Assembly (NCBI GenBank): GCA_965202585.1
Contig: OZ241830.1
Span: 66,960,001 to 67,024,000, forward strand
From: Thalia democratica
Lineage: Eukaryota
Length of the DNA: 64,000 nt
Direction: 5' to 3'
Part shown: positions 22,301 through 62,600 of the stretch, piece by piece
Position numbering within the stretch: position 1 is the stretch's first letter
Layout: the number at the start of each line of letters is the position of its first letter
Program-made: the position numbers and the translations under genes
The notes under the pieces: generated by a model
The model's input: only the letters and a program-made list of their open reading frames with translations
Told to the model about the DNA's origin: nothing
Database searches by the model: none

Positions 22301-23284
22301 AACAAAATGTGTATAGTTTTTTGTATTCAAACGTAAAGCCGTAAAAAACAAAATTTATTTTTATTTACATGATTACTAATAAAAAATGTGTTTAGTTTTG
22401 GTGTGATAGAATTTAAACTATCGGTTAATTTTATTTTGAACTGAAGTTTTTTGTCAAAAGTATGTACTTGAGATTTAGCTGCAAAAATTCTAAAATAGAA
22501 GGTGTATTTAAATAAGTAGTTCAGTTTTATGCAAAATGTAAAACTTTGAACTAATAAAAACTAAACTTTTTTGTTCAAAGAATATTACTAAAAAGCAATT
22601 TGATTTGGGCTTTTAAACTTTAAGCTTATTAAATGCATTCCTAGATAATAAAAATTCATACAACACCTTTTTGCTAAGAAGCAAAGCTAAATACCAAAAC
22701 TTTAAGACTTTTATTATGCTCAAAGCATAAAGTTTTTAAGCTTAAATTTATATAAGTTTAGCTTTTTCAGTGCTTAATAAAAAGTATTTTTTTAAAAAGT
22801 CGTCTATAACTTACAGTAGCATTTTTTTGTTTTAACTACTTGTAGGTTAACAATTATAATTAACAAAAATGCAAGGTATAGAAATACAACTTTTGTTTAG
22901 AAAATCTATAAAGCTTTAAGCTGATTAGACTACAATAAAATCATGAAATTATTTCAACAAAGTTAACTTGGCTTTTACAATCTTTCAACATAGTCAAAGC
23001 TAGCCGGGCCGAAGATTTATACTTGACGGACCTTAGTTTGCTTTGAAATAGCAAGAAAGTACTTAAAATATCTCTAAATCAAAATTAAATTCTGGTTAAC
23101 ATGATACTTTTCAAGAGCATAAACTTTGAGGGGCAAACAAGTTGTCTGAAACTAAGTTTATAATTTTGTACAAATCTATTGTTACGTCATTATTGCAGTT
23201 TAAGTATTTTTATAAGTTGTTTAGTTACATATCACTTTTATTATTTTACAAGTAAGTATTGTCAGTGTAAAAAGAAGTTTTAGA

Positions 23285-25109
23285 ATGACAAGAAAAAAAG
23301 CAAGTTTGTTTTTCCTTGTAGTCAGCGCCTTACTGCTCCAAGCACTGCACACAACAGCACAAAATAATCGTGATGAATGTGTGGAAAAACAACTGAAGCT
23401 GGGAAACATTAATCCAACTACTGATAAAAGTCCTTTCCAAATAAAGTTGACAGCGAAAACATACTCAGCAAAAACTGCTGTTAAAGGTTTGTGTTTGCAG
23501 TAAATATTATTAATGAGATTCAATTTTTTTTTCTATTCAGATTTAAACAAAAAAAATAGCACTTGTACATGTTATTCAAGACTCTATTTGACGTTTTAGA
23601 TAAATTACTGTATATTAATAGTAAAAGCCAAAGTTCTCAAAAATTTTTAGATCACTAATGAAAAAGTAAGTGCACATTAGATAAGCAAGTAAATTTTTTT
23701 GTATAAAAACTTAATCAACCATCGTTTATTCTGACTGCTGATTTGAAATTAACAAAAACTTGTAAGGATCTATTTAATAAACAGCTGATGAATAAAAGAT
23801 TAAACACAACTAACTTGTCGAAAAACTTCCACTACTTATTAATTTCTATTTGTTCACATCAAACCAGCTTCTGTACACACTTTTGTGTACACCTTCTAAA
23901 AACTTTGCAAATCCTTAAAACAATATTTTATTTATACATTTTCACTACAAAAGCACACTTTGATTGAAAAAGCTAGGTAGTATACATAATAAACTACTTT
24001 TATATTCTAAACGCTTGTTTGTTATAATACGACAAGGTATTATTTGCAAACATTTTGATAAACAAAATTTTAAGTCCTACAAAGTTTTGAAAGTACAACT
24101 TTAAATATTTACACCAAACTCACACAAACTGATTTCCACAGTCGAGGTCGAAGCCACCGGTCACACCTTCAAGAAGATCCTGTTGTACGCCGTTGCGGGA
24201 GAAGAAGCACAGGTGGGCGAGTGGGGAAATGCACCGGACGGCTTGAAGGGTGCAACCTGTCAGAAGGCGAACGACGCAGCGGTGCACAGTGACGAAAAGG
24301 TGAAAAAGGAGTCGATGGCTATTGAATGGACCGCAGATAAAGACCTTGGAGAAATCGAATTCAGGTTTGAAGTTTTTTATTGTTACAATTATGTGTAAAA
24401 CCTTTTTTTGTATTATGTGTAAAACCTTTATAAAACAAAAATGTAAAGCTCTTAAGTTTAGCAGTGGTATTAAATTCAGGTTTGATGTTAATATTTTTTA
24501 AATTTGCTTGTAAATAAGTTCATTTTTCTTTATTTTTTAGTTTAACGGTTTAGTTTTAGTGTTGTAAGATATTAAAGTTTTTTTTATTGCTTTTGATTTT
24601 AACTTTTTAGTTGGTTAAATATTAATTGTTAACAAAGTTAGCTATTTATAATATATGTTATAGTCTTCAAAGATTTAGCAACAAACATGTTTTCACAACT
24701 AACTGACTAATTCAAATCAAAATAACGTATAAATATTAAGCTTTTGTTACTACTTTTAAAAAGAACAAATAAATAACTTCATTTGTATTTTGTTCATTAA
24801 ACTAGAGTACCAAACAAGTAATTTTTCAAAAGTATAAATAAACGATTTGTTACAAACAAGTAATTTAAATGATGTAAATAATGTAAACAACTATTAATAA
24901 AGTTTATTAATCACAGAGCAACGGTGGTTGAAGATTTAAAAATATTCTATGAGTTGAAGTCGGAAAAAATTACCTATAAAGAAGAAAAAAAAGAAGAAGA
25001 AACAGCAAAACCAGCAGAAACAACAGAGAGCAATGCCAGTACTAATAATTTGAAAATAGTCATGTTGCTCACTAACTATTTTGTCTTTCTTGCTTACTTT
25101 TATATGTAA
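23285..25109 (+). CDS. Secreted Reeler-domain protein with GPI-anchor-like tail, 3 exons, 205 aa
   Basis: Exons 23285-23486, 24142-24364, 24917-25109 (phases 1 and 2, 618 nt). Signal peptide, then SPFQI..., FKKILLYA...VGEW..., C...AAVHS...K...IEWTA...GEIEFRATVV (Reeler pattern), an acidic spacer and a hydrophobic C-terminus. Confidence 0.88.
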
Positions 25110-26907: not shown

Positions 26908-28994
26908 CTATTTTTTTTGCCAAATAAAACGTTCTAAAACTTTTTCCTGAAAACTTTCCTTTCCTGCTAGAACCTTTTCATTAACCATAGACTTTTCTAT
27001 ATTATGTACTCCTAATGTATTTAACCTCGTATTGCTCATCCTGCTTCTTAACCTGTTTTTTATCCTTTTCATACAAGAAAATTTCCTCTCAGCATCTGAA
27101 GTTGACATAGGGGTTGTAACAATAATCTCTCCTAAACTCATTATTTCACTAAAAATAGTATCTAGACCTTCTTCCTTAAACTTTTTCAATAATTTTTCCT
27201 ATGATTCTTAACACCAGCTATCCCTTTGGTAATAAATTTTAAATTGTGGCTTAAGTTTGTTAATATTAATTGAAGGATAAATTTCAGAAATGTTACTAAA
27301 AAACTCACCTAACTGCACTTTAAAACAACTTTTATAAAAATCTTTTCTAAATATTTGATGTGCCACCAAATGACATGTCTCAACATTTTCAAAACTTTTC
27401 TTTAACTCACCTAAAATTTTACTAATAACGTCACTAGCTGTTTCCTGAATTTCAAAAGGAATTTCAGTTACTTTAATATCTTAGATATACTCTCTAAATT
27501 CTCTGAAGCTGTTGTTCACGGAACTTGCTGTAGATCTAACAATTTGTAACTTAAGAAAAATCAACTCTACCTGAGAAAAAATAGGTTGAAAAAAACTTAA
27601 CAAATTAAAAAAAAATTCACTATTAAAAAGAGTTTGAAACTTCTTATCTTTAAAAACAGTTTTTCTTATTTTACTTTTGGTAGATACTTCCTGAAAACAA
27701 GCTTAGTACTGACTGTAGTAGGTAACTAACCTCTTCAAAGTTCTACTAAAATAACTCCACCTGGTATCAGATCCTGTTGGTAAACTTCCTCCTGTTAATT
27801 TCTTTTCAATTTTTTTTTTAAGTGATTTATTAAAAAAATATGAAATTTTCCTAATGTTTTCAAAAAACTCAATACTTTCCTCATTTTGCTGACATGCTTT
27901 CTTAATGACCAGCGGCATTTGGTGGCAATGACAATGTGTGTAGTGGGCCCTCTTATAAACATTCTTAATTCTAGCCTGAACTCCTTTTTACTTTCCTTCC
28001 ATTACCTTTGCTCCATCAAAAGTCTGAGCTATAAGTTTTTCTTGATTTTCCTCTAGCACAATCTTAAGCTGCTCCGAAATGAAATTAGAAATATCTTCTG
28101 AATTTACTGATTCTGGACAGAAATAACCCCAAAAATGCTCAACAACCTTACCTGATAACTTAATATACCTAAAAACAATAACTAACTGTGTTTGACCACT
28201 AATATCAGTGCTTTCATCTGCTATTACTGCTAAATATTTAGCCTGACTTATTTAAAAAATTACTTTCCTCCTATATACTTGAAGCACACTATCTAAAACT
28301 TCATTTTGGATGTCTGGGGAAGTTAACTTACAATTTGAACCTAAGCTACTACTTAAATTGGTTTTGAGTATAGGACTATCATCTGCCAAGAGATCTAACA
28401 TGTCTAAGAATACCCCCTTTTTTACTGAAAAAATCCTTTCGTTATCTCCTTTAAATGGCAACTCATGACAACCTTAAAAAAACTATAAACTTCATTACGT
28501 ACCTTAAAAGTTCTAAGTTTTCCTTTACTTTTGTATTATAATCAAAAATGGACTTATTCTGAGCAAATCCTAAACTTTCCTCAATACCTGATTTGGATAA
28601 AAGCTTAAGACTAACCAAACTATCTATTGCCCTCAGTACTCTCATGCTCCCTCATCCTTACAGTAATACAACCAATATTAGTAAAACCTGACCTGACAAA
28701 ATTACTTCTAGCACCTTTATTAAATAATAAACATGGAAAACAATACAAAGAATTATCCACCTTACCTGAACAAAGCCAATCTTTCTCCTGAAAATATTTT
28801 TCCTTGAAACTTTGTATATATTTTTTCCCGTTACTAGAAGAAGGTTTACTTAACTGAATCATTGGTGTTGGCCTCCGTCGTAACTTGACGTTCAATTTTT
28901 CCTGCTGACTTAACCTGTCAAAATTAAGTGCCTTTAATTCTTCAACTGTCATTAGTTCGGTGAAACTAAAATCACTCATTTTTTCTACATACAA
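26908..28994 (-). mobile_element. Decayed hAT transposase (ZMYM1/THAP12-like, TTF zinc finger plus hAT dimerization domain)
   Basis: WLC...SLYCFPCLLF zinc finger, TSPDIQNE, ADESTD-like and HCHCHQ catalytic-region motifs, and a SDAERKFSCMKRIKNRLRSRM dimerization motif. Split by frameshifts and stops. Confidence 0.88.
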
Positions 28995-31924
28995 TCTGTC
29001 TTAAAGATAAAAAAATAGTTTGTTTAATATTTCATTATGATGTTGTTTGAAACTTGACTATCAAACTAGTAAAATTAGCTCTTAAGGTTAAGATATATCT
29101 AAACATACAATGCTACCATGTGAATTTAAAAAAGAACTGTCCTAAGTGACCTTTAACTGTCTGAAAAGTCCTAATTTTTTTCTTTATCATTGAAATAAGA
29201 CTAACTTTTCAAATTTATCAATGTTTTTTTTTTTTTACAAAATTGGTTATTTAAATAGATTTATTAAAACTAGGCACTAAATCTCATTCAAATCTAGAAA
29301 AACATATGTTATGACATTATTAACAAACCTAAAAATGTCCAAAGGTTTTCATAGATAAAAAAAAACTATACTGAGTCAGCCTGAGTTCAAAAATAAAACT
29401 CTTAATATCCTAGAGTTATCCAGGATACTTTGAGTGTGCGGCAACAATGTACAATTTTAATCTTTAAACTTTGTTAAAAAATGAAATAAAAGTTTAACTA
29501 AGTTAAGCATTTATAAAATATTTAAATAAGTTTTAATTAAAAAACAAAGTTCTAAAATATAAAAAAAAACTATAGTTTGTTTATATTATTCTTTAATAAA
29601 TATTATATTATTGAGTTTTTCAGTTTGTCTTCTTTTTGCAAGCTATTTGTCTTATTGTGTTATTCTTTCTGATTTAGTAGATTCTAATCTTCTTGATAAA
29701 ACTTCAGGAATTGATATTGTCATCACTGATTCAAAAGTTTTCATTGTTGTATATTTGTCAACCACAGAGATTTAATCTTAAAACATTCAACTCAGAGAGT
29801 CAATTTGACTTAAAACAAAAACTAAAAAGTTAATTCTCAATGTTAGTTTATTTTGAGATTCATCTACTTTAAAATTCATCTTCTTATATATTTTCTACCT
29901 ATATTTGCTCTTTTTGTAACACAAAAAAATATAAATTTCAAAAAATGTTAAGTTCTTTTTGACTCACCACAAACATTTCAATAGTACAAGATCCTCTCTC
30001 ACACTAATTTTTTCATTTTCTCACATCATTAAAACCAAATCTACAGCTTCCAAATTGATTTTTTTACAATACTTTGCTATTTGATAATAGACTTTTACAC
30101 CAAGCTATTTGTATACAATTTAGATGTATTCAATTTGTTTGTTCAATATTTATGACATTAAAAGTGCTAGTGAGTCCGTAAATGTGTAGAAATTATTTCT
30201 CAGAAGTGCAAAACTAAGGGAAGAAAAGCAAGTTTTTATGCACAAATGTTTACGTTTCTGTAGATTTGCAGAAACATACCAAGATACGTGCCTGCGGCGC
30301 ACTATCTGATTACGCCACAGAAGCTGCGTGTAAATTTAAAATTGGTTGATGCGTTGTATACCTAGTTATTAAATGAGTTAAATGGATGATTTTTCAGTTC
30401 GAAAAGTTCTACGCGTTTAAACTATTTGTTTTACGAAAAATGTCAATACTAGAAGTAACACTTCTAAACAAATAGTAATCAGATTGTAGTATAATAGTTT
30501 TATTAATTAACAAATTTATCTTAAAAATTAAATTCATTGTTGATACTACCAAGTAATGTTCTTAACTGTCGGTGATAACTAAGAAAAAACCTAATGGTTT
30601 GAATGTAATTTTATAAAGTATTATAGTACAAATGAGATCAGCGTGGAATTATAATAATTATATTCCAAACTTTCTTAAGACCTTTATGATATGAATGTAT
30701 ATTCTTGATTATAAGATTTTTCAATAATTTAGTTACATATAGCTTAAAACGTTATTGTATACTAAAGTAAACAAATAGTAAAAAATCAAAACAAACTTAT
30801 AGTAGTAAAACCAACAAAGTACATAAATAACTGCTCAAAAATAATACAGTTTTTAAAAAAATACAATTTTGCTTTTAGCAAGGTAGAAAATATATTAGTT
30901 TTAATTATCTAAATTTCTGTTTTATTAACCTAGGTTTGAACTAGGTTCTCAAATTCTAAATGGACGTTCCAGTCTTATTTAAGAAATGTATATGAATATA
31001 TACAAATAGTTGTGATCAAATTTTTGTGATCTTTAGAATATTATGCATGTCAATCATTAAAAAAAAATTAATTAAATCAGAGTTTTAATTATATGTTTTA
31101 CGCGCAACAAATAAGTATTTCTAATTATGTATCAGGTAAATAACATTAAATATACTTTTAAATTCAACAAAAAAACCGTTCAAGTCAGAAAACAAGTTTC
31201 AAAATATAATTTTATTTACGATATTAATATCAAATACACTTTTCAATTATCTAAAAATTTAACATGGATTTAGTTTACATAAGTTATATGTTTGTGATAC
31301 TTTTAGTTTAATCTAAGCCATAAAGAAAATAAACTAAGTTTCTAAACAGTTTAGTAATTTAAAAAATATACCTATGCTCACATTTATTTATGCAACTTAA
31401 AAAAATAATTTTAAAATGAGCTTTAATGCTAAAAACTAATTCAATTGATAAAAATATAATTTAACGAGTTTGTCTTTTTTAAACTATGTAACCGTATAAT
31501 GTTTTGCATTTATTAAGTGTTTAAGTTTATACTGGGTATAAATGTACACGAAGTAATAAAACTGACATTTTAGTAATTATTTTAGTTTAATCAAAAAAAA
31601 AAATTTTACATAGTACAAAAAAAATGTTTAAAAAAAAAACAGTATACATTAATATACAATTAATATTATAACAGTATAGTTAAATGCAAAAAGTGCACAA
31701 ACATTTATGTACAACATTACATGTCTTTTTATTTTAAATACAACAACAAAAACTGTGTTAGCAGTATAACAACATTAAAAATATTCTGTATAGATAATTT
31801 GAACGTTTTTTTTTATCAAAAAATAATTGGAGATGACAAAAAAAAAATATTAAAAAAAATTAATTTTAATTTAACTAAACATGAAAAGCAGTTTTTATAA
31901 TCAACTCAATAAAAACAAAAACAT

Positions 31925-38639: not shown

Positions 38640-39300
38640 TCAAAACATAATGTCGTCTCCGACATTTGAAAATAATTTTCAAATCCCTTGCTGACCGACA
38701 CCTTCACTCAACTGGGGGTTGATCACCGTTTTGTACCCCCTTACCCGGCAAATGGGTTCATTGAGCGTCAACATAAAACGATAAACCAAGCGCTGCGCGC
38801 CATAGAGACAAAAGCCAATTGGGCACAGCGACTACCGCTTATCATTGCAAGCATAAACAATACTTCCATAGAAGGTTCTCCCTATACTCCTTCCCAGTAT
38901 ACCCTAGGGGTGAGTGTGAACTTACCAGGTCAAATTTTCAATGATAGCATAAGGGAACTAATTTTGGTTGTGATCCTTTGGACACAATGTTATTCCTAAA
39001 TATTGTGTCCGACATTTGTCGCAAACACCAGCGACATAGGAATGTATACTATGAACCCTCTCTGTTTCAGTGTGAAAAAGTGTGGGTCAGACGTGAGAAC
39101 AAGAGGAAACTCAGATCCATTTATAATGGCCCGTATACAGTTATTCGTACCTTTGAACATTCAATGTATATTCAGAAAAATTGTGGGGTGGTGGAGGTTT
39201 TCATTCGCAATGTTAGAGCATATTTTCCAAGAAAGGACCTAGAGGGCGGAGACGATAATAAAAACAGAGGAGATAGATACAACCTCAGAGAAAGGCTTAT
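38640..39300 (+). mobile_element. Gypsy integrase remnant
   Basis: PPYPANGFIERQHKTI (catalytic E region), W...LP, TP, and YNGPYTV (GPY/F module), frameshifted across ORFs 38688-38999 and 38978-39334. Confidence 0.88.
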
Positions 39301-40649
39301 TGATATTCTTATATTCATATTCGTCACATATTGATATGTATAATTGATATTTGTATATATTTCATATTGTTTATATATACTTTTAATGGATATGAGTAAG
39401 AGACACTGTACACATAGTCAAGAGAAGGGTACTGGCTAGAGCCATGCAACTATTAGAAGTTACTCTGAGGCAGTACCTGTTCCGCCGGTGCTACCAGGCC
39501 CTCCAAGCGGACAAAGCTAATGTTATCAAAATGAACTCAAAAGTCCGCATTTGTAAAAATATTGAAATGGAATGACACAAGATTTCATTTTACAAATAAA
39601 AGTTTTAGAAGATTGTATCTGCTAAAGAAAATTAAGTTCTTAAAAGCATAATTGAAAATATTTATTAACAGTAGATGAAACAAGTCTGTATTTATAAATC
39701 ACAAGCAGAATAAAACATTAGAACCAGGTAAAATGCTATATGATTAAAAGTTATAAACCCATTATAAAAATAAAGTTGACAACTTATGTTCATATGGAAA
39801 ATAACCAACTAAGAAAGTTTATAAAAAGTGTATAAGGACTCATCTCAAGTTTAAACAAAGATAACAAGATCTCTAAGAAGAGTTTCAATTTTTAAGAACG
39901 ACCAGAACACTTTCAAGCTTTTTATTGTAAATAAGATAAAAAATGAATAATCATCACTTGGCAATAAAGACGAAATGACAAGAAGGAAAACTAAAAATCA
40001 AATATGAAAAGAATCCTAGATCGTACAGAAATCTAATCAAAGGTAAAAAGACTTATAAGCGATAAACAATCATCTTCAAATGTAGTTGAATATGCTAACG
40101 GATAACGGGGATGCCAATGCAAAATAGAGTTATTATCGTTAGTAAATAAAGCAGATTAATTTATAGCTAGTCTTAAATATCTAAAACAAAGTTTAGAAAA
40201 TTTTTAAGTAAAACTTTATAGGAAAGACCAAAAACTTGTATGACAAAACAAGAAATCATCATGGCTCGAGTGACTATAACTCTGATAAAAAAGTTAAATC
40301 TGGATGATAAACAGAGCACAATACCAAAGAGGAGAAAAAGAAAAATTAATCAAAGTGAAGCATTATACCAAATGAAACTCAAAGTAAAAAGATAATTTGT
40401 TAAACATTACACTTCAATTTTTTTTCTTTCCAATTTGTTTCGAAACAGGCTTTGCTTGCAATTTTAAAAGAAAAAGTAATACAAGCTATTTCCAATTATT
40501 AATGTTACTTAAAGTAATGTATCACTAATTTCATTCAATTTAGATGAAATTAGTATAGAAGAGGTAGACATAAAAAGTGGTAAAATACAATTTATGCCTG
40601 AATGTAAAGAAGATATTTTTGTACATAACGATGAAAAGTCTGACCCGAA

Positions 40650-41910
40650 TATTTTATAATTTAACTAATAAGTATGTATTCATTTAATGGCATTACAAAT
40701 ATTCAATACAACGTTGAATGTCCATCTAACTGTTGTTTTCTTAAGCCAAAATTCATTAAAAAAATTGATAAAAGTTTTGAACAAAAACATAAATAGGTCA
40801 AATCATGAAGTTTACCTTGAGTTTAATTATCTATTCAAAACCAGGAAAAAATTCAATTATTTAATGTTAAAAATTAGAAAATCTAAAGAAGTAACAGTTA
40901 ATACAAACAAATATATTTCTGTTGACCAAATTTGCCAACTGACCAAGTTTTGTAACTCAAGTATTCCATCTGAGGATAAAAGTACTTTGCCCTTTTTGTT
41001 AAGTATTTTAATGAAACTATTTTAGATATATGTATATAGTCTAGGTGTAAATAGTTCTTCTACTTTGTATATTGATAGAACTATTGATCGTAGTGAATAT
41101 TTTATTACTCCTATTACAAATTTTAATACTAAATTGTATAGGCAAAGTACTAAGAAAAACCCTATTTAAATGGGTTGTTTTTACTACACACATCTACTTT
41201 AAGTAAAAAAGATTTTTTTTAATTTTTTGACCATTTAAAAAATGTTTTGTCATCTTGTTGCTCATGTTAAAGGTGATTCTGATGTTTGGAAAACAAATTC
41301 ATTTTATGTTACTGATCAAGAAAAGGGTATAATATCAGCAATAGATGATGTTGTTCCTAATTGTCAAAGAATTCTATGTTCTAGGCACATTAATGAAAAC
41401 ACAGAGTTGCCACTTACTTTTTCAAAAAAATTTGCAGGTTTTCCAATTTTCTTCCAATTTTCAAAGGTACACATTTTTGGGTCTATTTATAGTAGAGTTA
41501 AGTTAAAGGTAAGAAACTGTGTTGAATAATATAAAAACATTGAAAAGATACTGTGCAGCTACTTTAAACATGTTTTTTAATAAAAAATTTTTTGATGATG
41601 ACAAAAATTTTTATTTGTATGATATATTTTTTAAGTCAAATCGATATTTTACTACTAAACATGTAAAAACTGTTGAAATTTTAGGTTTTTCCAGGTTTTT
41701 TATTTCGCCTAAATTGTCAAGTTTTCAGGTAAAGTGGTAACCCTAAAAACATTATATTAAAACTACAATCAAAAGTTTTAAAAAATATATTTAAAAAGTT
41801 GACGGAATGTAAAACCTATGATAGTTTCCTTGAATTAAGAAACTCAATTGTAACTAATTCTAAGTAGGTAGTAATATTAAAGTTTCTGGTTATGTTTTAA
41901 ATCAAATAGA
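40650..41910 (+). mobile_element. Decayed Mutator-like (MULE) transposase interrupted by a MITE
   Basis: YVTDQEKGIISAIDDVVPNCQRILCSRHINEN is the MULE D...CxxH motif. Removing the MITE plus one TSD restores the frame (RHINENIILKLQSKVLKNIFKKLTEC). Confidence 0.8.
41402..41745. mobile_element. MITE, CAGGGTTGCC-TIR family, 6-bp TSD AAAACA
   Basis: cagagttgccactt...aagtggtaacccta. AAAACA at 41396-41401 and 41746-41751. Confidence 0.88.
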
Positions 41911-42380
41911 TCTACATAAATAAAAATGGTAAGAACCATTAAAAAAAATCAGTCACAGTCTTTTACAACCACTTAGAATAGATCTTTCGTTTATTAAAAA
42001 ACAAACATTTTCAATTCTGTAGAAAACAAAAAAATATACTAGCAACTAGAGAAAATTAAGTACCGTAAATTAAATATTTTTAGCAAAATTTAAAATAAAA
42101 CTAAAAACTACCATATTGTTAAAATACTGAATTTCATACTATTACTTTAAAATTAATAGGACACTTATATTTGAGATTAGTCAGTAAAATTTGATATAAT
42201 TTTTCAATTTGAGAAACTGAAAAAAAGACACTTTGGAAAATTATTTTTGTTTACTGTAACTAAGAAAAACTATTTCTATAAACAACAAACAATTAAAAAA
42301 TTCTCTAGTATTGTACTTGGTAAAAAAATATATTTTTTTTTTTTTTTTTAATGACATTTTCAAATTTTTTATCATTAAAA

Positions 42381-43661
42381 CTATTCCTTAAAAACACTGT
42401 TTAAATTAATTTTTGCCTTAGTTTTTTTAATCCACCATTGTTCTGTGTAGTCTAAATTAGTTCTTATAGGGCTTTCTAAAAACTGGACTGTGTAGGCATT
42501 TTCTATTTTTTCTGGTATATTGTTTTTGTGAAATTTATTATAATGTATAATTAGAGCAAATTGATCTTTTATTTCATGGTTTAGTTCAGTTTTATTGTTT
42601 TTCCATATGTTTCTGTGGGCATTCCACCTCTTAGTAAAGCTATTCATAGTCTGTCCAATGTATAAATTTTTGCATATGTTGCATGTAGCTGCATAAATTC
42701 CATAATTGTTGTTTAATTTTCATATTTTGTATTGTTTTGTTTTTACTTATCATACTTTTATTATAGTTTCCAAAATTTCCACACAAAGCACACTTTCCAC
42801 ATTCAGCTGTTTTGTTGTTTTCTGTTTTTGTAAAATTATTTTTGTTTATTAATATATTTCTCAGTGTTTTTGGTCTCTTATAAGTTAATCTTAATAATTC
42901 TGTACTGTAACATTGTTCATTTTTGCTAAAATTTATAAATTGTTTAAAGCTGGTTGCCCAAGTCACTTTTTCATTTTGTTCTGTTTTTTTTATGTTATTT
43001 GTACTAGGATCTTTATTACATACTTCATCTAATTCATTAAAGGTATTATTTATTAATTTTTTACTGAAACTTGATCTACTGCATTTAATTTTTAAGTTAA
43101 TTAGCGCCTTTTCATAATCTTCTGTTTTTTCATTTAATTTTTTAAGTCTATTAGCTTCTGATAAAATTATTCCTCTAAAAACATGTGTTGGATGGTAAGA
43201 ATTGCCATTTAAAAATTTTGCTAATTTTGCTGTGGGTTTGGTGTGGTTTACTGTTTTAAATCCGTTTATTTCTGAGCTATTTATAATATGTAAAATATCT
43301 AAAAATTCCAGTTGTTTTCCTTCTTCTGTATTTGAGATTTTTTTAAATTGTAAATTTAGATCATGAGATTGAAATTTTTTGGTGAGTTCATCTTGAATAA
43401 AAATAGCTTTATCTGCTGGGCACAAAAAAATAATGTCGTCTATATATCTTTTATAAATAAAACACAATTTTAAAAAGTTTAAATTTTTAGTTATAAAGTG
43501 GAGGGCAATATTTGCCAGTGAGACGCTGAAATTTTCTCCTGTAGGTATCCCTTGGTTATTCTTGTATAGACTATTTTTAAAACTAACATAATTGTTTTCT
43601 AAGCAGAACATTATTGTTTCTACTATTTGTTTATTTTGTTTACAGTTATAATGAGTACAAA
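42381..43661 (-). mobile_element. 5'-truncated Penelope-like retroelement ORF (RT plus GIY-YIG), left copy, frameshifted
   Basis: QGIPTGENFSVSLANI, YKRYIDDII, LEFLDI, HPTHVFRG, CGKCALC. A 14-bp deletion breaks the GIY-YIG domain. Confidence 0.93.
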
Positions 43662-44900
43662 CTGCTTAGAAAACAATTATGTTAGTTTTAAAAATAGTCT
43701 ATACAAGAATAACCAAGGGATACCTACAGGAGAAAATTTCAGCGTCTCACTGGCAAATATTGCCCTCCACTTTATAACTAAAAATTTAAACTTTTTAAAA
43801 TTGTGGTTTATTTGTAAAAGATATATAGACGACATTATTTTTTTGTGCCCAGCAGATAAAGCTATTTTTATTCAAGATGAACTCACCAAAAAATTTCAAT
43901 CTCATGATCTAAATTTACAATTTAAAAAAATCTCAAATACAGAAGAAGGAAAACAACTGGAATTTTTAGATATTTTACATATTATAAATAGCTCAGAAAT
44001 AAACGGATTTAAAACAGTAAACCACACCAAACCCACAGCAAAATTAGCAAAATTTTTAAATGGCAATTCTTACCATCCAACACATGTTTTTAGAGGAATA
44101 ATTTTATCAGAAGCTAATAGACTTAAAAAATTAAATGAAAAAACAGAAGATTATGAAAAGGCGCTAATTAACTTAAAAATTAAATGCAGTAGATCAAGTT
44201 TCAGTAAAAAATTAATAAATAATACCTTTAATGAATTAGATGAAGTATGTAATAAAGATCCTAGTACAAATAACATAAAAAAAACAGAACAAAATGAAAA
44301 AGTGACTTGGGCAACCAGCTTTAAACAATTTATAAATTTTAGCAAAAATGAACAATGTTACAGTACAGAATTATTAAGATTAACTTATAAGAGACCAAAA
44401 ACACTGAGAAATATATTAATAAACAAAAATAATTTTACAAAAACAGAAAACAACAAAACAGCTGAATGTGGAAAGTGTGCTTTGTGTGGAAATTTTGGAA
44501 ACTATAATAAAAGTATGATAAGTAAAAACAAAACAATACAAAATATGAAAATTAAACAACAATTAAATTGCAAAAATTATGGAATTTATGCAGCTACATG
44601 CAACATATGCAAAAATTTATACATTGGACAGACTATGAATAGCTTTACTAAGAGGCGGAATGCCCACAGAAACATATGGAAAAACAATAAAACTGAACTA
44701 AACCATGAAATAAAAGATCAATTTGCTCTAATTATACATTATAATAAATTTCACAAAAACAATATACCAGAAAAAATAGAAAATGCCTACACAGTCCAGT
44801 TTTTAGAAAGCCCTATAAGAACTAATTTAGACTACACAGAACAATGGTGAATTAAAAAAACTAAGGCAAAAATTAATTTAAACAGTGTTTTTAAGGAATA
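43662..44900 (+). mobile_element. 5'-truncated Penelope-like retroelement ORF (RT plus GIY-YIG), right copy
   Basis: Same RT motifs plus CKNYGIYAATCNICKNLYIGQT...R..AH (GIY-YIG with Cys/His motif). Premature TGA at 44848-44850 where the left copy has TGG. Confidence 0.93.
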
Positions 44901-45749
44901 GTTTTAATGATAAAAAATTTGAAAATGTCATTAAAAAAAAAAAAAATATATATTTTTTTACCAAGTACAATACTAGAGAATTTTTTAATTGTTTGTTGTT
45001 TATAGAAATAGTTTTTCTTAGTTACAGTAAACAAAAATAATTTTCCAAAGTGTCTTTTTTTCAGTTTCTCAAATTGAAAAATTATATCAAATTTTACTGA
45101 CTAATCTCAAATATAAGTGTCCTATTAATTTTAAAGTAATAGTATGAAATTCAGTATTTTAACAATATGGTAGTTTTTAGTTTTATTTTAAATTTTGCTA
45201 AAAATATTTAATTTACGGTACTTAATTTTCTCTAGTTGCTAGTATATTTTTTTGTTTTCTACAGAATTGAAAATGTTTGTTTTTTAATAAACGAAAGATC
45301 TATTCTAAGTGGTTGTAAAAGACTGTGACTGATTTTTTTTAATGGTTCTTACCATTTTTATTTATGTTTATCTAAAATTCAATCCTGTCCGGTCTTTAAA
45401 ATCAAAAGAGGAAGACTACCTTCATCCCATTTTAATTTCAAATAGATCTAATATTAAAATTTAAATTAATGGTTTTTGATTGTAGTTTTTTCATTGAAGA
45501 AGACGGTATAACCTTTTGTCTGTATAAAACTAGTCCAAATGCTAAAACCGTCAAGTTTTAATGGGAATAAGACGATTTTGTTTGCTAAACCAAAGAAATA
45601 TACCTAACCTTATATACAGGAGGGGATATTGGTTCCATTTTAAAGAGATACACGTAACAAACTTATAGTTTATTACATACTGTTGACGCCGTTTCGACTT
45701 TTTATCAGTCATTTTTAGATAAAAAAACTGAGCAAAATAACTTCTACTG

Positions 45750-45960: not shown

Positions 45961-46358
45961 AAAAACTATTGAACAATTATACTGAAGACAATATTGAAGA
46001 AATCAGAGCCATGTAACATTACAGTCGGTAAAACATTACCAAAATAAAGCTTGCTTAAATTAATTTTGTAATTATAAGTATAAACGATCACTTGAATTGT
46101 TTTAATATTATAAGTAAAACGGTGAACTGTACATTTTAAGTAGGACAAAATAGTTTTCAACTTAGAAGTAGCTTCAAATATCTTAATAGCTATGTATAGC
46201 TCAATTAAATAATGCCTGAAAGATCAGTGATTTTTTCTTGCCAGATGGAAAACTTAAACACGTTTTAGAATGCAAATATGAACACTCTTAAAAAGTCTGA
46301 GTTGTAAAATTAAATACAGTTGTTTTAATTTGTTTAAAAATATTTACACTATTTGCAG

Positions 46359-46544
46359 AAACATGCAATCTTGACCCACTACTGCGTACTATGTGACAAA
46401 ATAGGTTTTGAGAAAAAAAAGGAGGAACTAGAGATTGTAACGTACCAACTTTCACGTACGTACTTTTGCAACCACATGAGTGTCAGCATTACAGCTCCCG
46501 TTTACTCCGCCAAGCTGCTGGCACTCAGATCCAGGCAGTATTAA
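46359..46544 (+). pseudogene. Orphan Argonaute (AGO-clade) PIWI-domain C-terminal exon
   Basis: tttgcag| acceptor followed by THYCVLCDKIGF...ELEIVTYQLSRTYFCNHMSVSITAPVYSAKLLALRSRQY*. This is colinear with the AGO consensus SHYHVLWDDNRF...[33 protein letters not shown]. Confidence 0.78.
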
Positions 46545-47449
46545 AACGGGGAAAACCTAAATCAAATAGGTTTTGCTTGAAATAAGTTTCTATAAACTTG
46601 TGATCATAACTAGAGGAAAAGCAAATAGAGGTAAGTCAGTAGTTCGGCAAGATATAGCAGTTAATTTAGTTTTGCATTGGGTGTTTTGTTATGTATACAC
46701 AAAGTCGTTAAATGCGGTTAAGGCAAAACTTGAATTTATTTGTGAGTCTTCAAAACATTCACAATATTTTTTTACACGAAGGGAGGTGAAATATATTATA
46801 TTAAACCATATGTGTTTTGAGAATTAATCTCTTTTCAACATCTTAGTTAAAAGAAAACAATTTGAAATACTTAAAATCTGTGGTGTGTAAAGTGGTAAAT
46901 GAAGATTTTAAATTTCATGAAAAGATGGCATTTTAGAAAAATAGGATGTTGCTCATCATTTGTTCATAGAAAATGAAAAACATTAAATGAAAAAAAAAGG
47001 TTTAACTTCACAGATCCAGATAACAGAAGACTGATGAATGGTGATTGCAAATACTTCAAGTTCCAATTGAACTCACTAGTAAAGCTGAGATATAAAAAGA
47101 AAAAGATAGAGTAGATTTTATCCAATTGAAAAGTTTAGATCAAAATGAACAGCTTCAAAAAAGTACACTTTTGCTGTAACTGATAGACAGCTTATTAATG
47201 GTATGCCTTTGAAGTATAGAAATATACGGCTTGGAAAACAAAAAGTCCCCCCAGAAACCTACTAAGTTGTTCAAAAGCTTAAATCAATGCTTCACACATC
47301 TTAAGCTAAAAGATCAATTGCTGAAATTGCAAACACTGATTTTAGAAGAAATAAACTTGTTCTTGGTAAATTTACAAACCTGACAACCATATTATACGAA
47401 CACTTTGCCAGCATCTTCTAAAAGTGACATACTAGATCCATACGCAGAA

Positions 47450-48350
47450 GCGATAGTTCTTTGCTCAAAATTTCCCGGGCCAAGAAGAGGTTCTTCCTTA
47501 ACTATATTGTTTGCTTACCGGTTTCTGTGTGTGAGAAATGTCTTATAGAAAACCTGATAACGGTTAGTAATAACTGTCTCCGCCAAATCTTGTACCATAA
47601 CAATGCAAGAAGAAGAATGTTTCTTAACTTAAAAGTTCTTGGTGGTTTTGATACCGCAGAGTACCAGACAGAAATACATTCTTACTTTAACACCTTTGGC
47701 ATTAGACGTGAAAGGACTTCTGAGGTGGATAGACAACTCTGTTAGCCACATGCTGACTAGGAAATTGAGGAGCGTCGGTTGGCGGTACTCCAAAGCACAT
47801 GGGAATAGGGATTGGCAAGACCCAAGATACACAGAGGATCAAAACCAAATAGTCTGCACTGGCGCACATTATGGGTGAACAAATCTAAAAGAGACATTTG
47901 TCTGATCATGAGTTGGATCGTTTGTCAAGCTATTCAGGGGTATGATTTTTTTTTATTTATCAGGTTAAGCTATCTTGAGCAAGCAATAGATTACCTGTTG
48001 TAAGTTCTGGACTAGTATTGGGTTACAAGGGAGGGAAAAGAATTTAATGTTTGCTAACATCTTGTCCGATGATTGAATTTTAGATTGTGCACTGATCAGA
48101 GTAAATTTGACCAGTAACAAGCCTATGATTGGATAGTAAACGCGGTGAAGAGTATAGTTAAACGGCTTTCCTCGAATAATCATCTGGACTTACCTCTGGT
48201 TGGTCAGAAAGAGATCAAATCTCTGTCAGAAGTTTAAATCTATGATAGGAAAACCGAGTTCAAGTGGAAACATGGTATTCTTAGTGGTTATCGTTAGACT
48301 GCTCTCCTGGATATGAGGTTTACAAAGGTGATGATGCTTTTTTTGTATAC
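47450..48350 (+). other. Endogenous viral element: decayed RdRp of a toti-like dsRNA virus
   Basis: Ordered motifs: F-like YD..LFIRLSYLEQ (47941), A CTDQSKFDQ (about 48088-48114), B WKHGILSGYR*TALLD (48265-48312), C YKGDDA (48321-48338). Multiple stops and frameshifts, intronless, more GC-rich than flanks. Confidence 0.85.
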
Positions 48351-48760
48351 AACAAAATTTTTGTGTACAACTAAGACCTTTGACATATAGGAAAAGTTTT
48401 AAATTTTTAGTGAATTGGAATCTGTTTGCTACAATTAAAATTTGAGAATTTATTACCTTAAAGAAAAGATCACACGGAAAACATTTTATTTTTATTCAGA
48501 ATTATAGTTAGTTTATAAGGTGAATATATATAAACAAAAGTAAAAATTCTAGAAATCGTATATGATGAGATGACAAGTTATAAAAGATGAAAAACCAAAA
48601 TGTAAGGACTTTTAAATAAAGCACCACCTGTAGACAAGTGGCACTGTAACTGGGTAACTGTAACTTTCAATTACTGTTAGTGCTAATATAGTAAATAAAT
48701 AATAATAATTGCCTTCTCAGGATTTTAAGATATTCTACAAACTAAAAACTCTAACATGAT

Positions 48761-48950
48761 CAGGGTTGCCACTCATTTTTTCAAGATTTTTTCCAGGTTT
48801 TTCAAATATCCAGGTTTTTATAAATACACATTTTGGGTCTATTTTTAGTTTTAAGTCAAGTTTAAGGTTATAAACTGTGTTAAATAGTATAAAAACATTA
48901 AAAAGATACTGTAAATTTATTTTTTAATAAGAAAAATTTTTGAAAATACA
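48761..48950. mobile_element. Truncated MITE, CAGGGTTGCC-TIR family
   Basis: Left TIR cagggttgccact and an interior matching the 53279 copy. No right TIR. Confidence 0.75.
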
Positions 48951-49528
48951 AATTAAAAACTCCAATATGATAAATAAATTTAACTGTGCTGGTACCTAAT
49001 TAAATGGGTATTTGGAAAAGTAAGACAGTAACCATAAAATGCTTTTTACAATTTTAAAGAAACAAAGCTTATTGCTGACTATGTTTCTAAAATGAATTTT
49101 ACTGTAAAACAACATTTTGTAAATAGTGGATTAACCAGTTATCAAAGCTTCACTTTTAAAGAGCATCACCAATGTTTGAAATGTTGAATCAAAATTTCCC
49201 AAAATAACAAGCAATCGTAACAAACTTGCCATTAAACTAATAATAAGTCAAAATAATACTTTCTGATTAAAAGTTTGGCAGCAGAAACCCTCTGGCTTTC
49301 TTCAATTCATAAAATTCTGTTTGATTGAAGTTGAACTCCAAACTCAACTTCTGTGTGTGTGTGTGTTGACCTCACCTGTAAGAAAAAAATATTACAATAT
49401 ATTATTTAATGGTTGTTACTTTTCAGTTGTACAATGTTTAGTAACATGTATATAATATGGCAGTTCATGCCCATAACTTTGTATTGAAAAAAAATTAAAT
49501 GTTTATGTTTACTGTATTGTCATATTAA

Positions 49529-54374: not shown

Positions 54375-57300
54375 TAGTACCAGTACAAATCTGACTGATT
54401 CATTTCTCAATATAAATAACTGAAACTTTGCAAATATGTAATTTAGGGGTATCTCTTGGTACCGCTATATTTTTATGCATCTAGCTTAAATATTTTTAAA
54501 GCTGTGACCGCCTGAAATTTACCTTAAATAAACACAGTCGGTTGACTTTTAAAAAGACAACTTAGTACTGCTGGACCTCTAACTCCTTTATTTGTCAATA
54601 AAAACATATTAAACTTTGCCAATATGTTCTCTTATGTTTTCACTTGGTTAAAATTATTTATCTCATTTCTAACATGTTCGGTTTTGAAAATATGATTTGA
54701 CCAAATAAATCAGCAAAATTGTTGTAAATTCCGTATAAAAACACGTTCATTTTATTAAAAACAAAACAACGTAGTACCAGTACAAATCTGACTGACTCAT
54801 TTCTCAATATAAATAACTGAAACTTTGCAAATATGTGATTTAGGGGTATCTCTTGGTACCGCTATATTTTTATGCATCTAGCTTAAATATTTTTTAAAGC
54901 TGTGACCGCCTGAAGTTTACCTTAAATAAACACAGTCGGTTGACTTTTAAAAAGACAACTTAGTACTGCTGGACCTCTAACTCCTTTATTTGTCAATAAA
55001 AACATATTAAACTTTGCCAACATGTTATCTTATGTTTTCACTTGGTTGAAATTAATTATCTCATTTCTAACATGTTCGGTTTTGAAAATATGATTTGACC
55101 AAATAAATCAGCAAAATTGTTGTAAATTCCGTATAAAAACACGTTCATTTTATTAAAAACAAAACAACGTAGTACCAGTACAAATCTGACTGACTCATTT
55201 CTCAATATAAATAACTGAAACTTTGCAAATATGTAATTTAGGGGTATCTCTTGGTACCGCTATATTTTTATGCATCTAGCTTAAATATTTTTAAAAGCTG
55301 TGACCGCCTGAAATTTACCTTAAATAAACACAGTCGGTTGACTTTTAAAAAGACAACTTAGTACTGCTGGACCTCTAACTCCTTTATTTGTCAATAAAAA
55401 CATATTAAACTTTGCCAATATGTTCTCTTATGTTTTCACTTGGTTAAAATTATTTATCTCATTTCTAACATGTTCGGTTTTGAAAATATGATTTGACCAA
55501 ATAAATCAGCAAAATTGTTGTAAATTCCGTATAAAAACACGTTCATTTTATTAAAAACAAAACAACGTAGTACCAGTACAAATCTGACTGACTCATTTTT
55601 CAATATAAATAACTGAAACTTTGCAAATATGTAATTTAGGGGTATCTCTTGGTACCGCTATATTTTTATGCATCTAGCTTAAATATTTTTAAAGCTGTGG
55701 CCGCCTGAAGTTTACCTTAAATAAACACAGTCGGTTGACTTTTAAAAAGACAACTTAATACTGCTGGACCTCTAACTCCTTTATTTGTCAATAAAAACAT
55801 ATTAAACTTTGCCAATATGTTATCTTATGTTTTCATTTGGTTGAAATTAATTATCTCATTTCTAACATGTTCGGTTTTGAAAATATGATTTGACCAAATA
55901 AATCAGCAAAATTGTTGTAAATTCCGTATAAAAACACGTTCATTTTATTAAAAACAAAACAACGTAGTACCAGTACAAATCTGACTGACTCATTTCTCAA
56001 TATAAATAACTGAAACTTTGCAAATATGTAATTTAGGGGTATCTCTTGGTACCGCTATATTTTTATGCATCTAGCTTAAATATTTTTAAAGCTGTGACCG
56101 CCTGAAATTTACCTTAAATAAACACAGTCGGTTGACTTTTAAAAAGACAACTTAGTACTGCTGGACCTCTAACTCCTTTATTTGTCAATAAAAACATATT
56201 AAACTTTGCCAATATGTTATCTTATGTTTTCACTTGGTTGAAATTAATTATCTCATTTCTAACATGTTCGGTTTTGAAAATATGATTTGACCAAATAAAT
56301 CAGCAAAATTGTTGTGAATTCCGTATAAAAACACGTTCATTTTATTAAAAACAAAACAACGTAGTACCAGTACAAATCTGACTGACTCATTTCTCAATAT
56401 AAATAACTGAAACTTTGCAAATATGTAATTTAGGGGTATCTCTTGGTACCGCTATATTTTTATGCATCTAGCTTAAATATTTTTAAAGCTGTGACCGCCT
56501 GAAATTTACCTTAAATAAACACAGTCGGTTGACTTTTAAAAAGACAACTTAGTACTGCTGGACCTCTAACTCCTTTATTTGTCAATAAAAACATATTAAA
56601 CTTTGCCAATATGTTCTCTTATGTTTTCACTTGGTTAAAATTATTTATCTCATTTCTAACATGTTCGGTTTTGAAAATATGATTTGACCAAATAAATCAG
56701 CAAAATTGTTGTAAATTCCGTATAAAAACACGTTCATTTTATTAAAAACAAAACAACGTAGTACTAGTACAAATCTGACTGACTCATTTCTCAATATAAA
56801 TAACTGAAACTTTGCAAATATGTAATTTAGGGGTATCTCTTGGTACCGCTATATTTTTATGCATCTAGCTTAAATATTTTTAAAGCTGTGGCCGCCTGAA
56901 GTTTACCTTAAATAAACACAGTCGGTTGACTTTTAAAAAGACAACTTAGTACTGCTGGACCTCTAACTCCTTTATTTGTCAATAAAAACATATTAAACTT
57001 TGCCAATATGTTATCTTATGTTTTCATTTGGTTGAAATTAATTATCTCATTTCTAACATGTTCGGTTTTGAAAATATGATTTGACCAAATAAATCAGCAA
57101 AATTGTTGTAAATTCCGTATAAAAACACGTTCATTTTATTAAAAACAAAACAACGTAGTACCAGTACAAATCTGACTGACTCATTTCTCAATATAAATAA
57201 CTGAAACTTTGCAAATATGTAATTTAGGGGTATCTCTTGGTACCGCTATATTTTTATGCATCTAGCTTAAATATTTTTAAAGCTGTGACCGCCTGAAATT

Positions 57301-58666
57301 TACCTTAAATAAACACAGTCGGTTGACTTTTAAAAAGACAACTTAGTACTGCTGGACCTCTAACTCCTTTATTTGTCAATAAAAACATATTAAACTTTGC
57401 CAATATGTTATCTTATGTTTTCACTTGGTTGAAATTAATTATCTCATTTCTAACATGTTCGGTTTTGAAAATATGATTTGACCAAATAAATCAGCAAAAT
57501 TGTTGTAAATTCCGTATAAAAACACGTTCATTTTATTAAAAACAAAACAACGTAGTACCAGTACAAATCTGACTGACTCATTTCTCAATATAAATAACTG
57601 AAACTTTGCAAATATGTAATTTAGGGGTATCTCTTAGTACCGCTATATTTTTATGCATCTAGCTTAAATATTTTTAAAGCTGTGACCGCCTGAAGTTTAC
57701 CTCAAATAAACACAGTCGGTTGACTTTTAAAAAGACAACTTAGTACTGCTGGACCTCTAACTCCTTTATTTGTCAATAAAAACATATTAAACTTTGCCAA
57801 TATGTTATCTTATGTTTTCACTTGGTTGAAATTAATTATCTCATTTCTAACATGTTCGGTTTTGAAAATATGATTTGACCAAATAAATCAGCAAAATTGT
57901 TGTAAATTCCGTATAAAAACACGTTCATTTTATTAAAAACAAAACAACGTAGTACCAGTACAAATCTGACTGACTCATTTCTCAATATAAATAACTGAAA
58001 CTTTGCAAATATGTAATTTAGGGGTATCTCTTGGTACCGCTATATTTTTATGCATCTAGCTTAAATATTTTTAAAGCTGTGACCGCCTGAAATTTACCTT
58101 AAATAAACACAGTCGGTTGACTTTTAAAAAGACAACTTAGTACTGCTGGACCTCTAACTCCTTTATTTGTCAATAAAAACATATTAAACTTTGCCAATAT
58201 GTTCTCTTATGTTTTCACTTGGTTAAAATTATTTATCTCATTTCTAACATGTTCGGTTTTGAAAATATGATTTGACCAAATAAATCAGCAAAATTGTTGT
58301 AAATTCCGTATAAAAACACGTTCATTTTATTAAAAACAAAACAACGTAGTACCAGTACAAATCTGACTGACTCATTTCTCAATATAAATAACTGAAACTT
58401 TGCAAATATGTAATTTAGGGGTATCTCTTGGTACCGCTATATTTTTATGCATCTAGCTTAAATATTTTTAAAGCTGTGACCGCCTGAAATTTACCTTAAA
58501 TAAACACAGTCGGTTGACTTTTAAAAAGACAACTTAGTACTGCTGGACCTCTAACTCCTTTATTTGTCAATAAAAACATATTAAACTTTGCCAATATGTT
58601 CTCTTATGTTTTCACTTGGTTGAAATTAATTATCTCATTTCTAACATGTTCGGTTTTAAAAATATT
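54375..58666 (+). repeat. Tandem array of a 397-398 bp satellite, about 10.8 highly similar units
   Basis: Unit starts (tagtacc/tagtacaaatc) at 54375, 54772, 55170, 55568, 55965, 56362, 56759, 57156, 57553, 57950, 58347. Confidence 0.97.
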
Positions 58667-59664: not shown

Positions 59665-62600
59665 TTAATGATTTAATTTCCCTACACACATAGAACAAAA
59701 GAATGATTCAGTTTTCTTAAGCCTTCTGGATATTTTTAGACACCTATCATGGAACCATCTTCCACATTTTTCTTCTTCGCATCCCGTCTGTAAAAGCAGA
59801 AAAGTTAAAGAATATAAAATAAGAAATAATTTATTATTTTTACATAGTGCTTAAGCTAAACATACCCATACATCGTTTTTTCTCCTACAATGTCCAGTTT
59901 CTTCGACCAGTTTTTTTCCGCATATGTAACAACATTCACTAGGAGGCCCTTAATTGTTATATTTGCTTGTTATATTGTATAAATTTTTATATAATCTTTA
60001 AGATCTTTACGAACAAACCTCCTACTTCTAGAAGCTTGTTTGCTATATCCTTGCGAATAACATCAGATGGCTTAACCTTAATATGTCTCACCGCTTCATT
60101 TGCCAATAAATGTGTTGCTAACTATTAATATGCATATTTCTTTAATAAATAAGTATAATAAATAACTATTAATTATTTGTATGCGTAACTAACCTGTAGC
60201 ATAACAACTTTTGAATTTATGGTCTCTATCGTTTCGAGGGAATCATGCGTAGTCTGAATGTAGTTTAACGTTTCTTTCATTAATTGACAAAGGTAATTCT
60301 CAAGACGTTGGTTTTCATTTTCAGATAGTTGAATTTCAATTTTTGTCCATGTTTTTTCGTCCATGTTTATAAACTAAAACAAATAAGTTAGTTTTATAGT
60401 GTATGTCAAACAAGCTACAAATAAATTACTGATTTATTTTTTAACAATCAAAAATTTACCAAAAAATACTATTTATTTGCTTACCAAAAACTTTGTAACT
60501 TTTCCTTTAAAAACAAAAAAAACTTTTTTTAAATGTTTTAAACTGGTTAACTCCTCGTCTGTAATAACTGTTTCAAAATCAAGATCGTCTAGACTTTTTT
60601 CGTCAATAAAGATTGTTGCTGTCTCTAAAACAATATTTTATCTTTTATTTGAACTGATTTGTTTACATAAATCATCAAAAACTAACCATTGGGATGAAAC
60701 AGCTTCATGTAAAACAGCCAAGTATCATTCGTCATTTCATTGTTAGGTTTTAATGAACAAAAGTCTTTATGCGATAAAACCAACTTTTCGTTTTTCTCAG
60801 CTGTGCACGCTAATACTTTAATGCAAGGTTTCAAATTCCACAGATAGTTTCTCTGTTATAGAGATTAAAGATAAAAATTTCTTTACTTTCTATAAATATT
60901 AAAAAAAACTTTAGTAACTAACGTCTTTGATTAGTTGATACAATTTAGCAGCATCAGTCGTATTTCCCTCCAAGGAGATGGAAGTAAGTACCTTTTGAAT
61001 AGTTTAAGTCATTAAATCTAGATTTTAAAACTTTGACTATTAAGTATTTACAATAACCTTTTGATCTTGTTTATAGAACGACTTGATATTTTTAGCATTT
61101 CGTTTTGTTTTTGTTTTGCATAAAGAAATTCCATCAATTGCTACTGCTGAATCTGTTTTACTCAGTTGTCTTTCGTTTTTTGTAGCGTTTCTCCAGTTAA
61201 TATGATGATTATCAATATACAAATTTTCATTGAACCTTTCATATGAAAAAATTAAATTAGTTTGTTCTAACTATTTGAAAAATACATATAACAAGTTTTT
61301 ACCTGAATTGATCACGGGCAAGCCGAAGAAAATTTCCAATTTCCCAAACTCCTGATCTTTTTCTGAAGTCATTTAATGCTTCTTCCTCTCTTTCAGGATG
61401 GGCTAGCTGGTGTTTTTTCAAGTTAGAAAAAAGAGCTTCAGCTGCCTGATTATTTTGTAAAAACTCTTTTTCACCAATTATTTTTAACATGATTCCTGTC
61501 CATAACGGTATTATAGGAGCCCATTGTTTTAAAAAATATTCAATGAAAAGTTTACAATATAAATCATTCAGAGGCAATGTTTGTTGTTTTGAATCGTTAT
61601 TCTTGATGGATTTTTCAACATCCTTTCGAATAATCTACAGAAGTATTAAATTAATAAATTAAACGTCCAATCTAAACACTTAAGTTTCAGTAAAAAAAAG
61701 AAAGTGCATTGACAACTTTTAAAAGCTTAATCAAACTTTTTTCAAATAAAAACCATCAAATCTTTTCTAAATTGAGATGTGTAAATAATCTCCTCTTCCA
61801 AATCATCAATCTCTTCTAAATATTTTGTGATTTGATTTTGATCGAATGTTTTTTCTACAAGTTCGTTCACTGCTTCGCTAAACATTATTTAGAATATTTT
61901 AGATATACTACTACTAGATCATATTATATAAATTTACTTACTCGTTATCTAGTAGACTGTTTAGGAGTTTTAAGTTTCCTCTAACTTCCTCTGTTACATC
62001 TATAAAAGGATAAATCATTAATTCAAAACCTTTGACTTTAACTAAATAATATTATTTGTTTATTACTTACATTTATTTAAGGTAATCGTACAAATAAGCT
62101 TGAAGATATATTGCACTTTTTCATAAGTTTCTGATGTTACCATCCTACAGCAAGATGTCATCAAAAGCTTTTTTAAATCTCCTTTGTATTTTTTTCCGAT
62201 TTTTCTGTCGCACCATCGTTTGAAACTATGCATCATATGAGATCCGCACAGATGGATTGTGCAATCTATGCAGCTGTCGAACAGGTCTTTTTGCAATTTT
62301 TCTGTTAATAGGTTTAACTATTTTTACTACAAATCATAGAAACCACTGTTATTAAAGCTTTAATTCTTAAAAAAAAATTAACTAACGCTCGCTGGTAACT
62401 ACTGAATGTACGAAGAATAAATAATTTTTTAGACTTGTGCCATTGAATTCTTCTGCCGCGGAGTGAATTATTGGCAGACTACAATCACACTCAACTCTTT
62501 TAAAAGACTTACCTAAGTTTTAAACACTTGATAATAAATTAATCTTTATTTTATTCCAAATAGTGTAATGCGATAAAACCTACCTCCTGATATTTTTTTG

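Follow-up and report, generated by a model that had tools for sequence, protein, structure and literature searches.

The genome of the tunicate Thalia democratica carries a degraded fragment of the RNA-dependent RNA polymerase (RdRp) of a toti-like (Ghabrivirales) virus. The window, the whole 64,000-nucleotide stretch of DNA that was analysed, holds this non-retroviral endogenous viral element (EVE) at 47470-48339. The fragment encodes nothing and is dead, and it was probably copied from plus-strand viral RNA by the reverse transcriptase (RT) of a retrotransposon. The initial annotation had proposed such a fossil at 47450..48350; the proposal was confirmed and the locus is right, with the viral element itself somewhat shorter than that span.

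Homology to viral polymerases was examined using the single-frame translation of positions 47560-48318, with stops written as X, as a phmmer query against 1.84 billion proteins. The search returned 35 matches with a best E-value of 1.4e-24, and the Pfam domain RdRP_4 was above its cut-off in 31 of them. A profile built from the viral relatives scored 101 and 42 bits on the window, compared to maxima of 2.1 bits over 20 shuffled windows and 0.1 bits over 36 stretches picked at random from the genome. The phmmer E-value, the RdRP_4 domain of the relatives and a profile score far above that of the shuffled windows together argue against a chance match, and the annotated toti-like affinity stands. 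The Pfam profile PF02123 matched no frame of the window, which is expected since these frames are short and broken; it also gave no match in a genome-wide scan, where no control matched either. Its single match was to the piece between motifs B and C of a second copy, copy B, at 20.9 bits (E=2e-4), below the cut-off of 22. Recognition of the window by an RdRp profile thus holds for the profile of relatives and fails for PF02123. In the PDB, a sequence search with the fragment gave no match, and one with an intact relative gave only picornavirus polymerases at E>0.05.

A frameshift-aware alignment paired 47470-48312 with residues 78-394 of the viral protein P0045, with 119 of 279 positions identical (43%), and the motif C piece extends the viral sequence of the window copy (copy A) to about 48339. 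The GC content of the viral fragment is 39% compared to a background of 25%, a level reached by 8 of 396 background windows. Palm motifs A, B and C and the FLNLKVLGGFD block were found in order and at the positions originally annotated (Table 1). These ordered motifs, their toti-type residues and the significant homology to intact members place the fragment in the RdRP_4 group. The annotation had the motifs scattered across broken frames; motif C is indeed shifted, whereas motifs A and B share one frame. It had also listed a motif-F-like stretch, which did not hold up, the core of motif F having been lost from both copies with about 11 codons at a frame break. The shortened spacer between motifs B and C that it described is real: relative to the full spacer of copy B, copy A has a private 61-nt deletion near 48311, right after motif B, which a read contig bridges with 0 differences.

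Table 1. Features of the viral fragment and its surroundings, in positions of the window
Feature	Positions	Strand	Remark
Inverted pair of Penelope-like elements (RT and GIY-YIG), young	41907..45374		Younger than the EVE
Low-copy host DNA, restricted to contig C6 (9 matches)	46060..46607		Part of it also lies behind motif C of copy B
Interior segment of a DNA transposon, from a dispersed family with long terminal inverted repeats	46617..47468	+	Makes up the 5' junction of both copies
Toti-like dsRNA virus RdRp fragment, degraded	47470..48339	+	N-terminal domain to motif C
Conserved N-terminal block FLNLKVLGGFD	47620..47652	+	Relatives read FLDxKVLGG[YF]D
Frame break and deletion of about 11 codons, removing the motif F core	47916..47925	+	Common to copy B
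Out-of-frame stretch between two frame breaks	47995..48074	+	Both breaks common to copy B
Motif A, DQSKFD	48094..48111	+	Followed by a stop at 48115, common to copy B
Motif B, HGILSGYR*TALLD	48271..48312	+	Stop at 48295
Motif C, KGDD, out of frame	48324..48335	+	QGDD in copy B and relatives
3' host flank	48351..48953		Common to copy B and the virus-free paralogous locus at C6:71.43 Mb

The second copy and the host context

Copy B lies at C6:67133495-67134441 (L002), 126 kb downstream of the window copy, within a local segmental duplication. It keeps the whole spacer between motifs B and C, which aligns to an intact relative without gaps, with 37 of 73 residues identical. Both copies have the same four frame breaks, one of which took out the core of motif F, and the same stop; a further six lesions are private to copy A and four to copy B. 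Because the copies share five lesions, a single insertion that decayed and was then duplicated accounts for both. So both copies appear to have decayed about as long again after the duplication, and their divergence would correspond to some millions of years at an assumed rate of 1-2e-8 per site per year.

Divergence between the copies is 9.1% in the viral part and 9.2-9.4% in the 3' flank, and their pN/pS is 0.51 compared to a null median of 0.70 (P=0.11, 192 codons). By these measures the viral part is no better conserved than its flanks and bears no sign of constraint, indicating that its decay is neutral. Arthropod EVEs are known to serve as templates for antiviral piRNAs (described in PMC5497376 and PMC6580184), and the surroundings of the EVE are rich in transposon fragments and large repeats, as might suit a heritable immune memory. 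It is nonetheless improbable that this insertion was kept for such a role, given a viral part that diverges between copies as fast as the flanks, copies that have drifted by about 9% and a paralogous locus that lacks the insert.

The contig that carries the window locus is 81 Mb long, out of a genome of 802 Mb, and both flanks of the viral fragment recur at copy B. That the assembly is of a tunicate is supported by its mitochondrial COX1, in which 23 AGA and 10 AGG codons (33 in total) stand at conserved glycine positions, for instance the three glycines within DPxGGGDP and the one that precedes HPEVY. AGA and AGG are thus read as glycine, as in the tunicate mitochondrial code. A search for cellulose synthase yielded no candidates and was uninformative about the host group, and one for host exons gave no match. 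Read contigs from run X1 match copy A exactly, and a marine metagenome from a different study yielded short, low-depth contigs resembling copy A and copy B. An ENA protein (P0011) from an unrelated contig is colinear across the 3' virus-host junction of copy B. Among the read contigs listed, none had at least 31 bases on each side of either outer junction of copy A. The data sets listed as containing the sequence included none of RNA. The viral sequence is joined to host chromosomal DNA and carries disabling mutations, as is characteristic of a neutrally decaying EVE.

An assembly artefact, in which contaminating viral sequence was incorporated or a single locus was assembled twice, with A and B as its two haplotypes, is very hard to credit. 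In run X1 the A-type and B-type contigs have a similar depth of about 40, as two alleles would also give. Contamination, however, is at odds with a sequence full of stops and frame breaks that is present in DNA runs. As for haplotypes, A and B are collinear over a local stretch, copy B has no second set of the upstream host genes next to it, and the distal flank of copy B is nearer to the empty paralogous locus (8.3%) than to copy A (13.6%). Even were the two copies alleles, the EVE would stand. Separately, a read contig of 1471 nt (runs X1/X2, protein P0036; window 47472-47717) shows 38 differences from copy A, compared to 26 for copy B. It has another upstream flank, was not found in the assembly and represents either a third EVE variant or another haplotype.

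At its 3' end, copy B runs into low-copy host DNA, a piece that copy A has lost by deletion. At the paralogous locus at 71.43 Mb this host DNA is unbroken and holds no virus. We considered this locus as the true pre-insertion site and set that reading aside: its flanks are 8-10% diverged, no more than A is from B, and for this reason loss or rearrangement at the empty paralog is as likely. Neither poly(A), nor a target-site duplication, nor a retroelement junction is left at the window locus, and the enzyme responsible there cannot be named because the original junctions are lost. An Rfam search on five loci gave 0 matches.

Relatives and probable host of the virus

Virus names were found on 8 of the 30 clusters looked up, five being oomycete toti-like viruses and three totiviruses of Conidiobolus fungi; none came from animals. 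Over about 190 columns, the EVE is 46% identical to P0045 and 43% to P0037, both unnamed, compared to 28-32% for the named oomycete viruses. In a quick tree with SH-aLRT support only, the EVE grouped with P0045 and P0037 (SH-aLRT 98-99.9) and was carried on a long separate stem (0.79). The rows for copy A in these trees include about 27 out-of-frame residues, P0057 and P0058 were left out, and rooting was on unnamed rows; searches for distant named outgroups gave none. Forcing the EVE into the named oomycete clade was rejected (p-AU 0.0048, 20 rows), with five named oomycete viruses standing in for the ICTV exemplar species, which were absent from the rows. The RdRp therefore falls outside the named oomycete clade; it fits the relic of a toti-like RdRp, with no support for membership of Ootiviridae. 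These placements put the virus in an unnamed clade that has no host on record, adjoining but outside the named oomycete toti-like viruses, in keeping with the undescribed lineage that the annotation had envisaged.

The oomycete toti-like group has been placed with giardiavirus-like and IMNV-like viruses (PMC8538416) and is partly classed as Ootiviridae (PMC12063590). Its members are described as having a genome of about 5.5 kb, a long 5' UTR and a capsid-RdRp fusion made by -1 frameshifting (PMC8538416). They are the nearest named relatives of the EVE and resemble it in their motif types and in the N-terminal CExC/LxVLGG block; they differ in the low identity and rejected placement given above, and the EVE is known from an RdRp fragment alone. 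Intact members of the wider clade of the EVE lie on contigs of 5.2-5.6 kb, one of which, of 5.6 kb, has a 719-aa ORF (capsid) overlapping the RdRp ORF. Searches for the contigs of P0002 and P0045 gave no match. With the capsid of one relative as query, no capsid fragment was found in the genome.

Because the named relatives come from oomycetes or Conidiobolus and none from animals, the virus may have been that of a parasite or of prey. The insertions would then be real host insertions, but of viruses that infected an oomycete, a fungus-like or protist parasite, a symbiont or prey and whose RNA got into the tunicate germ line with no replication in the animal. Tunicates are filter feeders. The main text of a tunicate virome preprint (10.1101/2024.12.15.628590) also makes no mention of toti-like, Ghabrivirales or dsRNA viruses. 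The EVE nevertheless lies outside the named oomycete clade (p-AU 0.005) on its own long stem, and two viruses of one branch were captured, the second being described below, as is more readily explained by a resident lineage than by stray RNA. We regard an origin in a parasite or prey as rather unlikely. The same preprint describes Thaliacea and Appendicularia as under-sampled, and a second one (10.1101/2023.11.03.565523) makes no mention of toti. In the open PMC and bioRxiv literature we found no report of toti-like viruses or EVEs in tunicates.

We favour infection of the tunicate itself, and replication of the virus in it and cDNA synthesis by a retroelement RT are both likely. A toti-like virus would have infected the animal, and in one of the animal's stem cells or germ-line cells a retrotransposon RT would have copied part of the viral plus strand. 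After insertion, the fragment acquired four frame breaks and one stop, lost its 5' end to a DNA transposon and was copied by a local segmental duplication, with neutral decay since. The EVE ties a host to a virus clade that had none recorded, and it predicts a live virus that can be found in tunicate RNA. Tunicates are the sister group of vertebrates, and RNA-virus fossils have barely been surveyed there.

A second viral fragment beside a Penelope-like element

The initial annotation had pointed to Penelope RT relics 2-4 kb from the EVE as a possible source of RT. Elements with RT and GIY-YIG are indeed present in the window, but they are not the vehicle at this locus. The arms of the inverted pair differ at 2 of 904 nt, open copies of its family are numerous and 97-99% identical in amino-acid sequence, and the pair is the sole Penelope match in the 304 kb spanning both EVE paralogs. 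Since the pair is young and absent near copy B, while the EVE copies differ by 9%, it did not bring in the virus. The junctions of the EVE are formed by a DNA transposon and low-copy DNA rather than by Penelope. The Penelope idea is supported instead by another locus, on contig C5, where viral sequence related to the EVE lies directly against a Penelope element.

At C5:84134534-84134703 (minus strand; L033 5703-5534), a 170-nt match to the N-terminus of the RdRp scored 32 bits. Compared to the copies on C6, this fragment has a pS of about 0.9 and a pN of 0.19-0.24 over 42-43 codons, and it is sister to copy A in the tree (SH-aLRT 98, on 47 tree columns). Saturated synonymous sites with a low pN indicate that the divergence arose in viruses under selection, so the C5 fragment is a separate insertion, from a distinct but related virus. 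A third candidate site, C5:7.91 Mb (E=0.44), was rejected with a profile score under 5 bits.

In the C5 fragment, the LKVLGGYD block is followed after 5 bases by a Penelope linker in the same sense. The linker is 86-92% identical to all 10 examined copies of a Penelope family that carries RT and GIY-YIG domains (Pfam). Penelope sequence continues for about 116 nt, breaks off there and is not picked up again within 30 kb. The junction position is crossed intact by 35 of the 40 best copies of the family, although a further copy has its truncation point within 5 nt of the junction position. Penelope sequence is scarce in this genome: among 36 random 10-kb stretches, none was matched by two Penelope proteins and one was matched by DNA, and the 1046 RT candidates genome-wide amount to an estimated 0.2% or so of the genome. 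The viral sequence lies 5' of the Penelope 3' part in the same sense, an order expected if the RT copied the 3' part of the element and then jumped to viral RNA. The surroundings contain a DNA-transposon piece and an unrelated Penelope RT upstream and a transposase-like piece downstream; as the site is such a patchwork of transposon pieces, the junction could also have arisen through a subsequent insertion or deletion. Template switching by a Penelope RT is in our judgement the likeliest route at C5, a view we hold with modest confidence.

Template-switch chimeras between retrotransposons and other RNAs are known, such as U6-L1 chimeras and LCMV-IAP recombinants. The C5 junction is like these in that foreign sequence lies 5' and the 3' part of a retroelement follows in the same sense. 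It differs in that the partner is a Penelope-like element, the 3' end is lost and no target-site signature is readable. This chimera shape is seen at C5 and not at the locus of the window itself. In the open PMC and bioRxiv literature we found no report of Penelope-virus chimeras or of Penelope RT template switching as a route of RNA-virus endogenisation. The junction makes it testable whether the copying of viral RNA into genomes, as done by LTR elements and LINEs, is also within reach of Penelope-like elements. Taking both loci together, we propose only tentatively that an unnamed clade of toti-like dsRNA viruses, sister to oomycete and fungal viruses and known only from metagenomes, infects tunicates, and that it has reached their germ line on two or more occasions, one or more of them by way of a Penelope RT that switched template.

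Toti-like integrations have been reported in Aedes (PMC6580184). Like the tunicate EVE, those of mosquitoes are fragmentary, decayed RdRp sequences in transposon-rich DNA, with copies spread by duplication; the tunicate host, in contrast, is an invertebrate chordate, and its virus clade adjoins oomycete viruses. Non-retroviral integrated sequences (NIRVS) in mosquitoes are described as lying mainly beside Ty3/gypsy and Pao LTR elements, with no enrichment of Penelope (0.2% vs 0.42%; PMC5497376 Table 3). Toti-like EVEs are thus already known in arthropods; distinctive here are the chordate host, the hostless virus clade, the two independent captures and the virus-Penelope junction.

Other features of the region

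Spliced host genes were found in the window at 8128-9769 (-), 18550-19473 (-) and 23225-25109 (+). Two of them, recognised by eye, encode casein-kinase-1-like and claudin-like products; the third encodes a protein with a Reeler domain (Pfam E=1e-9). Mobile relics at 898-1598 (+), 26908-29000 (-), 38676-39334 (+) and 60387-62317 (-) comprise a LINE RT (Pfam E=2e-11), a hAT-like transposase (DUF4371) and, by eye, integrase-like and transposase-like pieces. A tandem array at window 54375-58665 has a 397-nt unit in 10.8 copies with 98% matches, and its inverted counterpart starts near window 63320. Beyond the window, a 10.6-kb repeat at C6:67039852-67050404 has at least four more copies up to 67184000, in both orientations and at 95-97% identity; it contains internal tandem repeats and an ORF with a NUDIX domain (L208:1724-2200, minus strand; Pfam E=6e-6). 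Elsewhere in the genome, at C4:56.84-56.94 Mb, there are several decayed nuclear copies of mitochondrial COX1.
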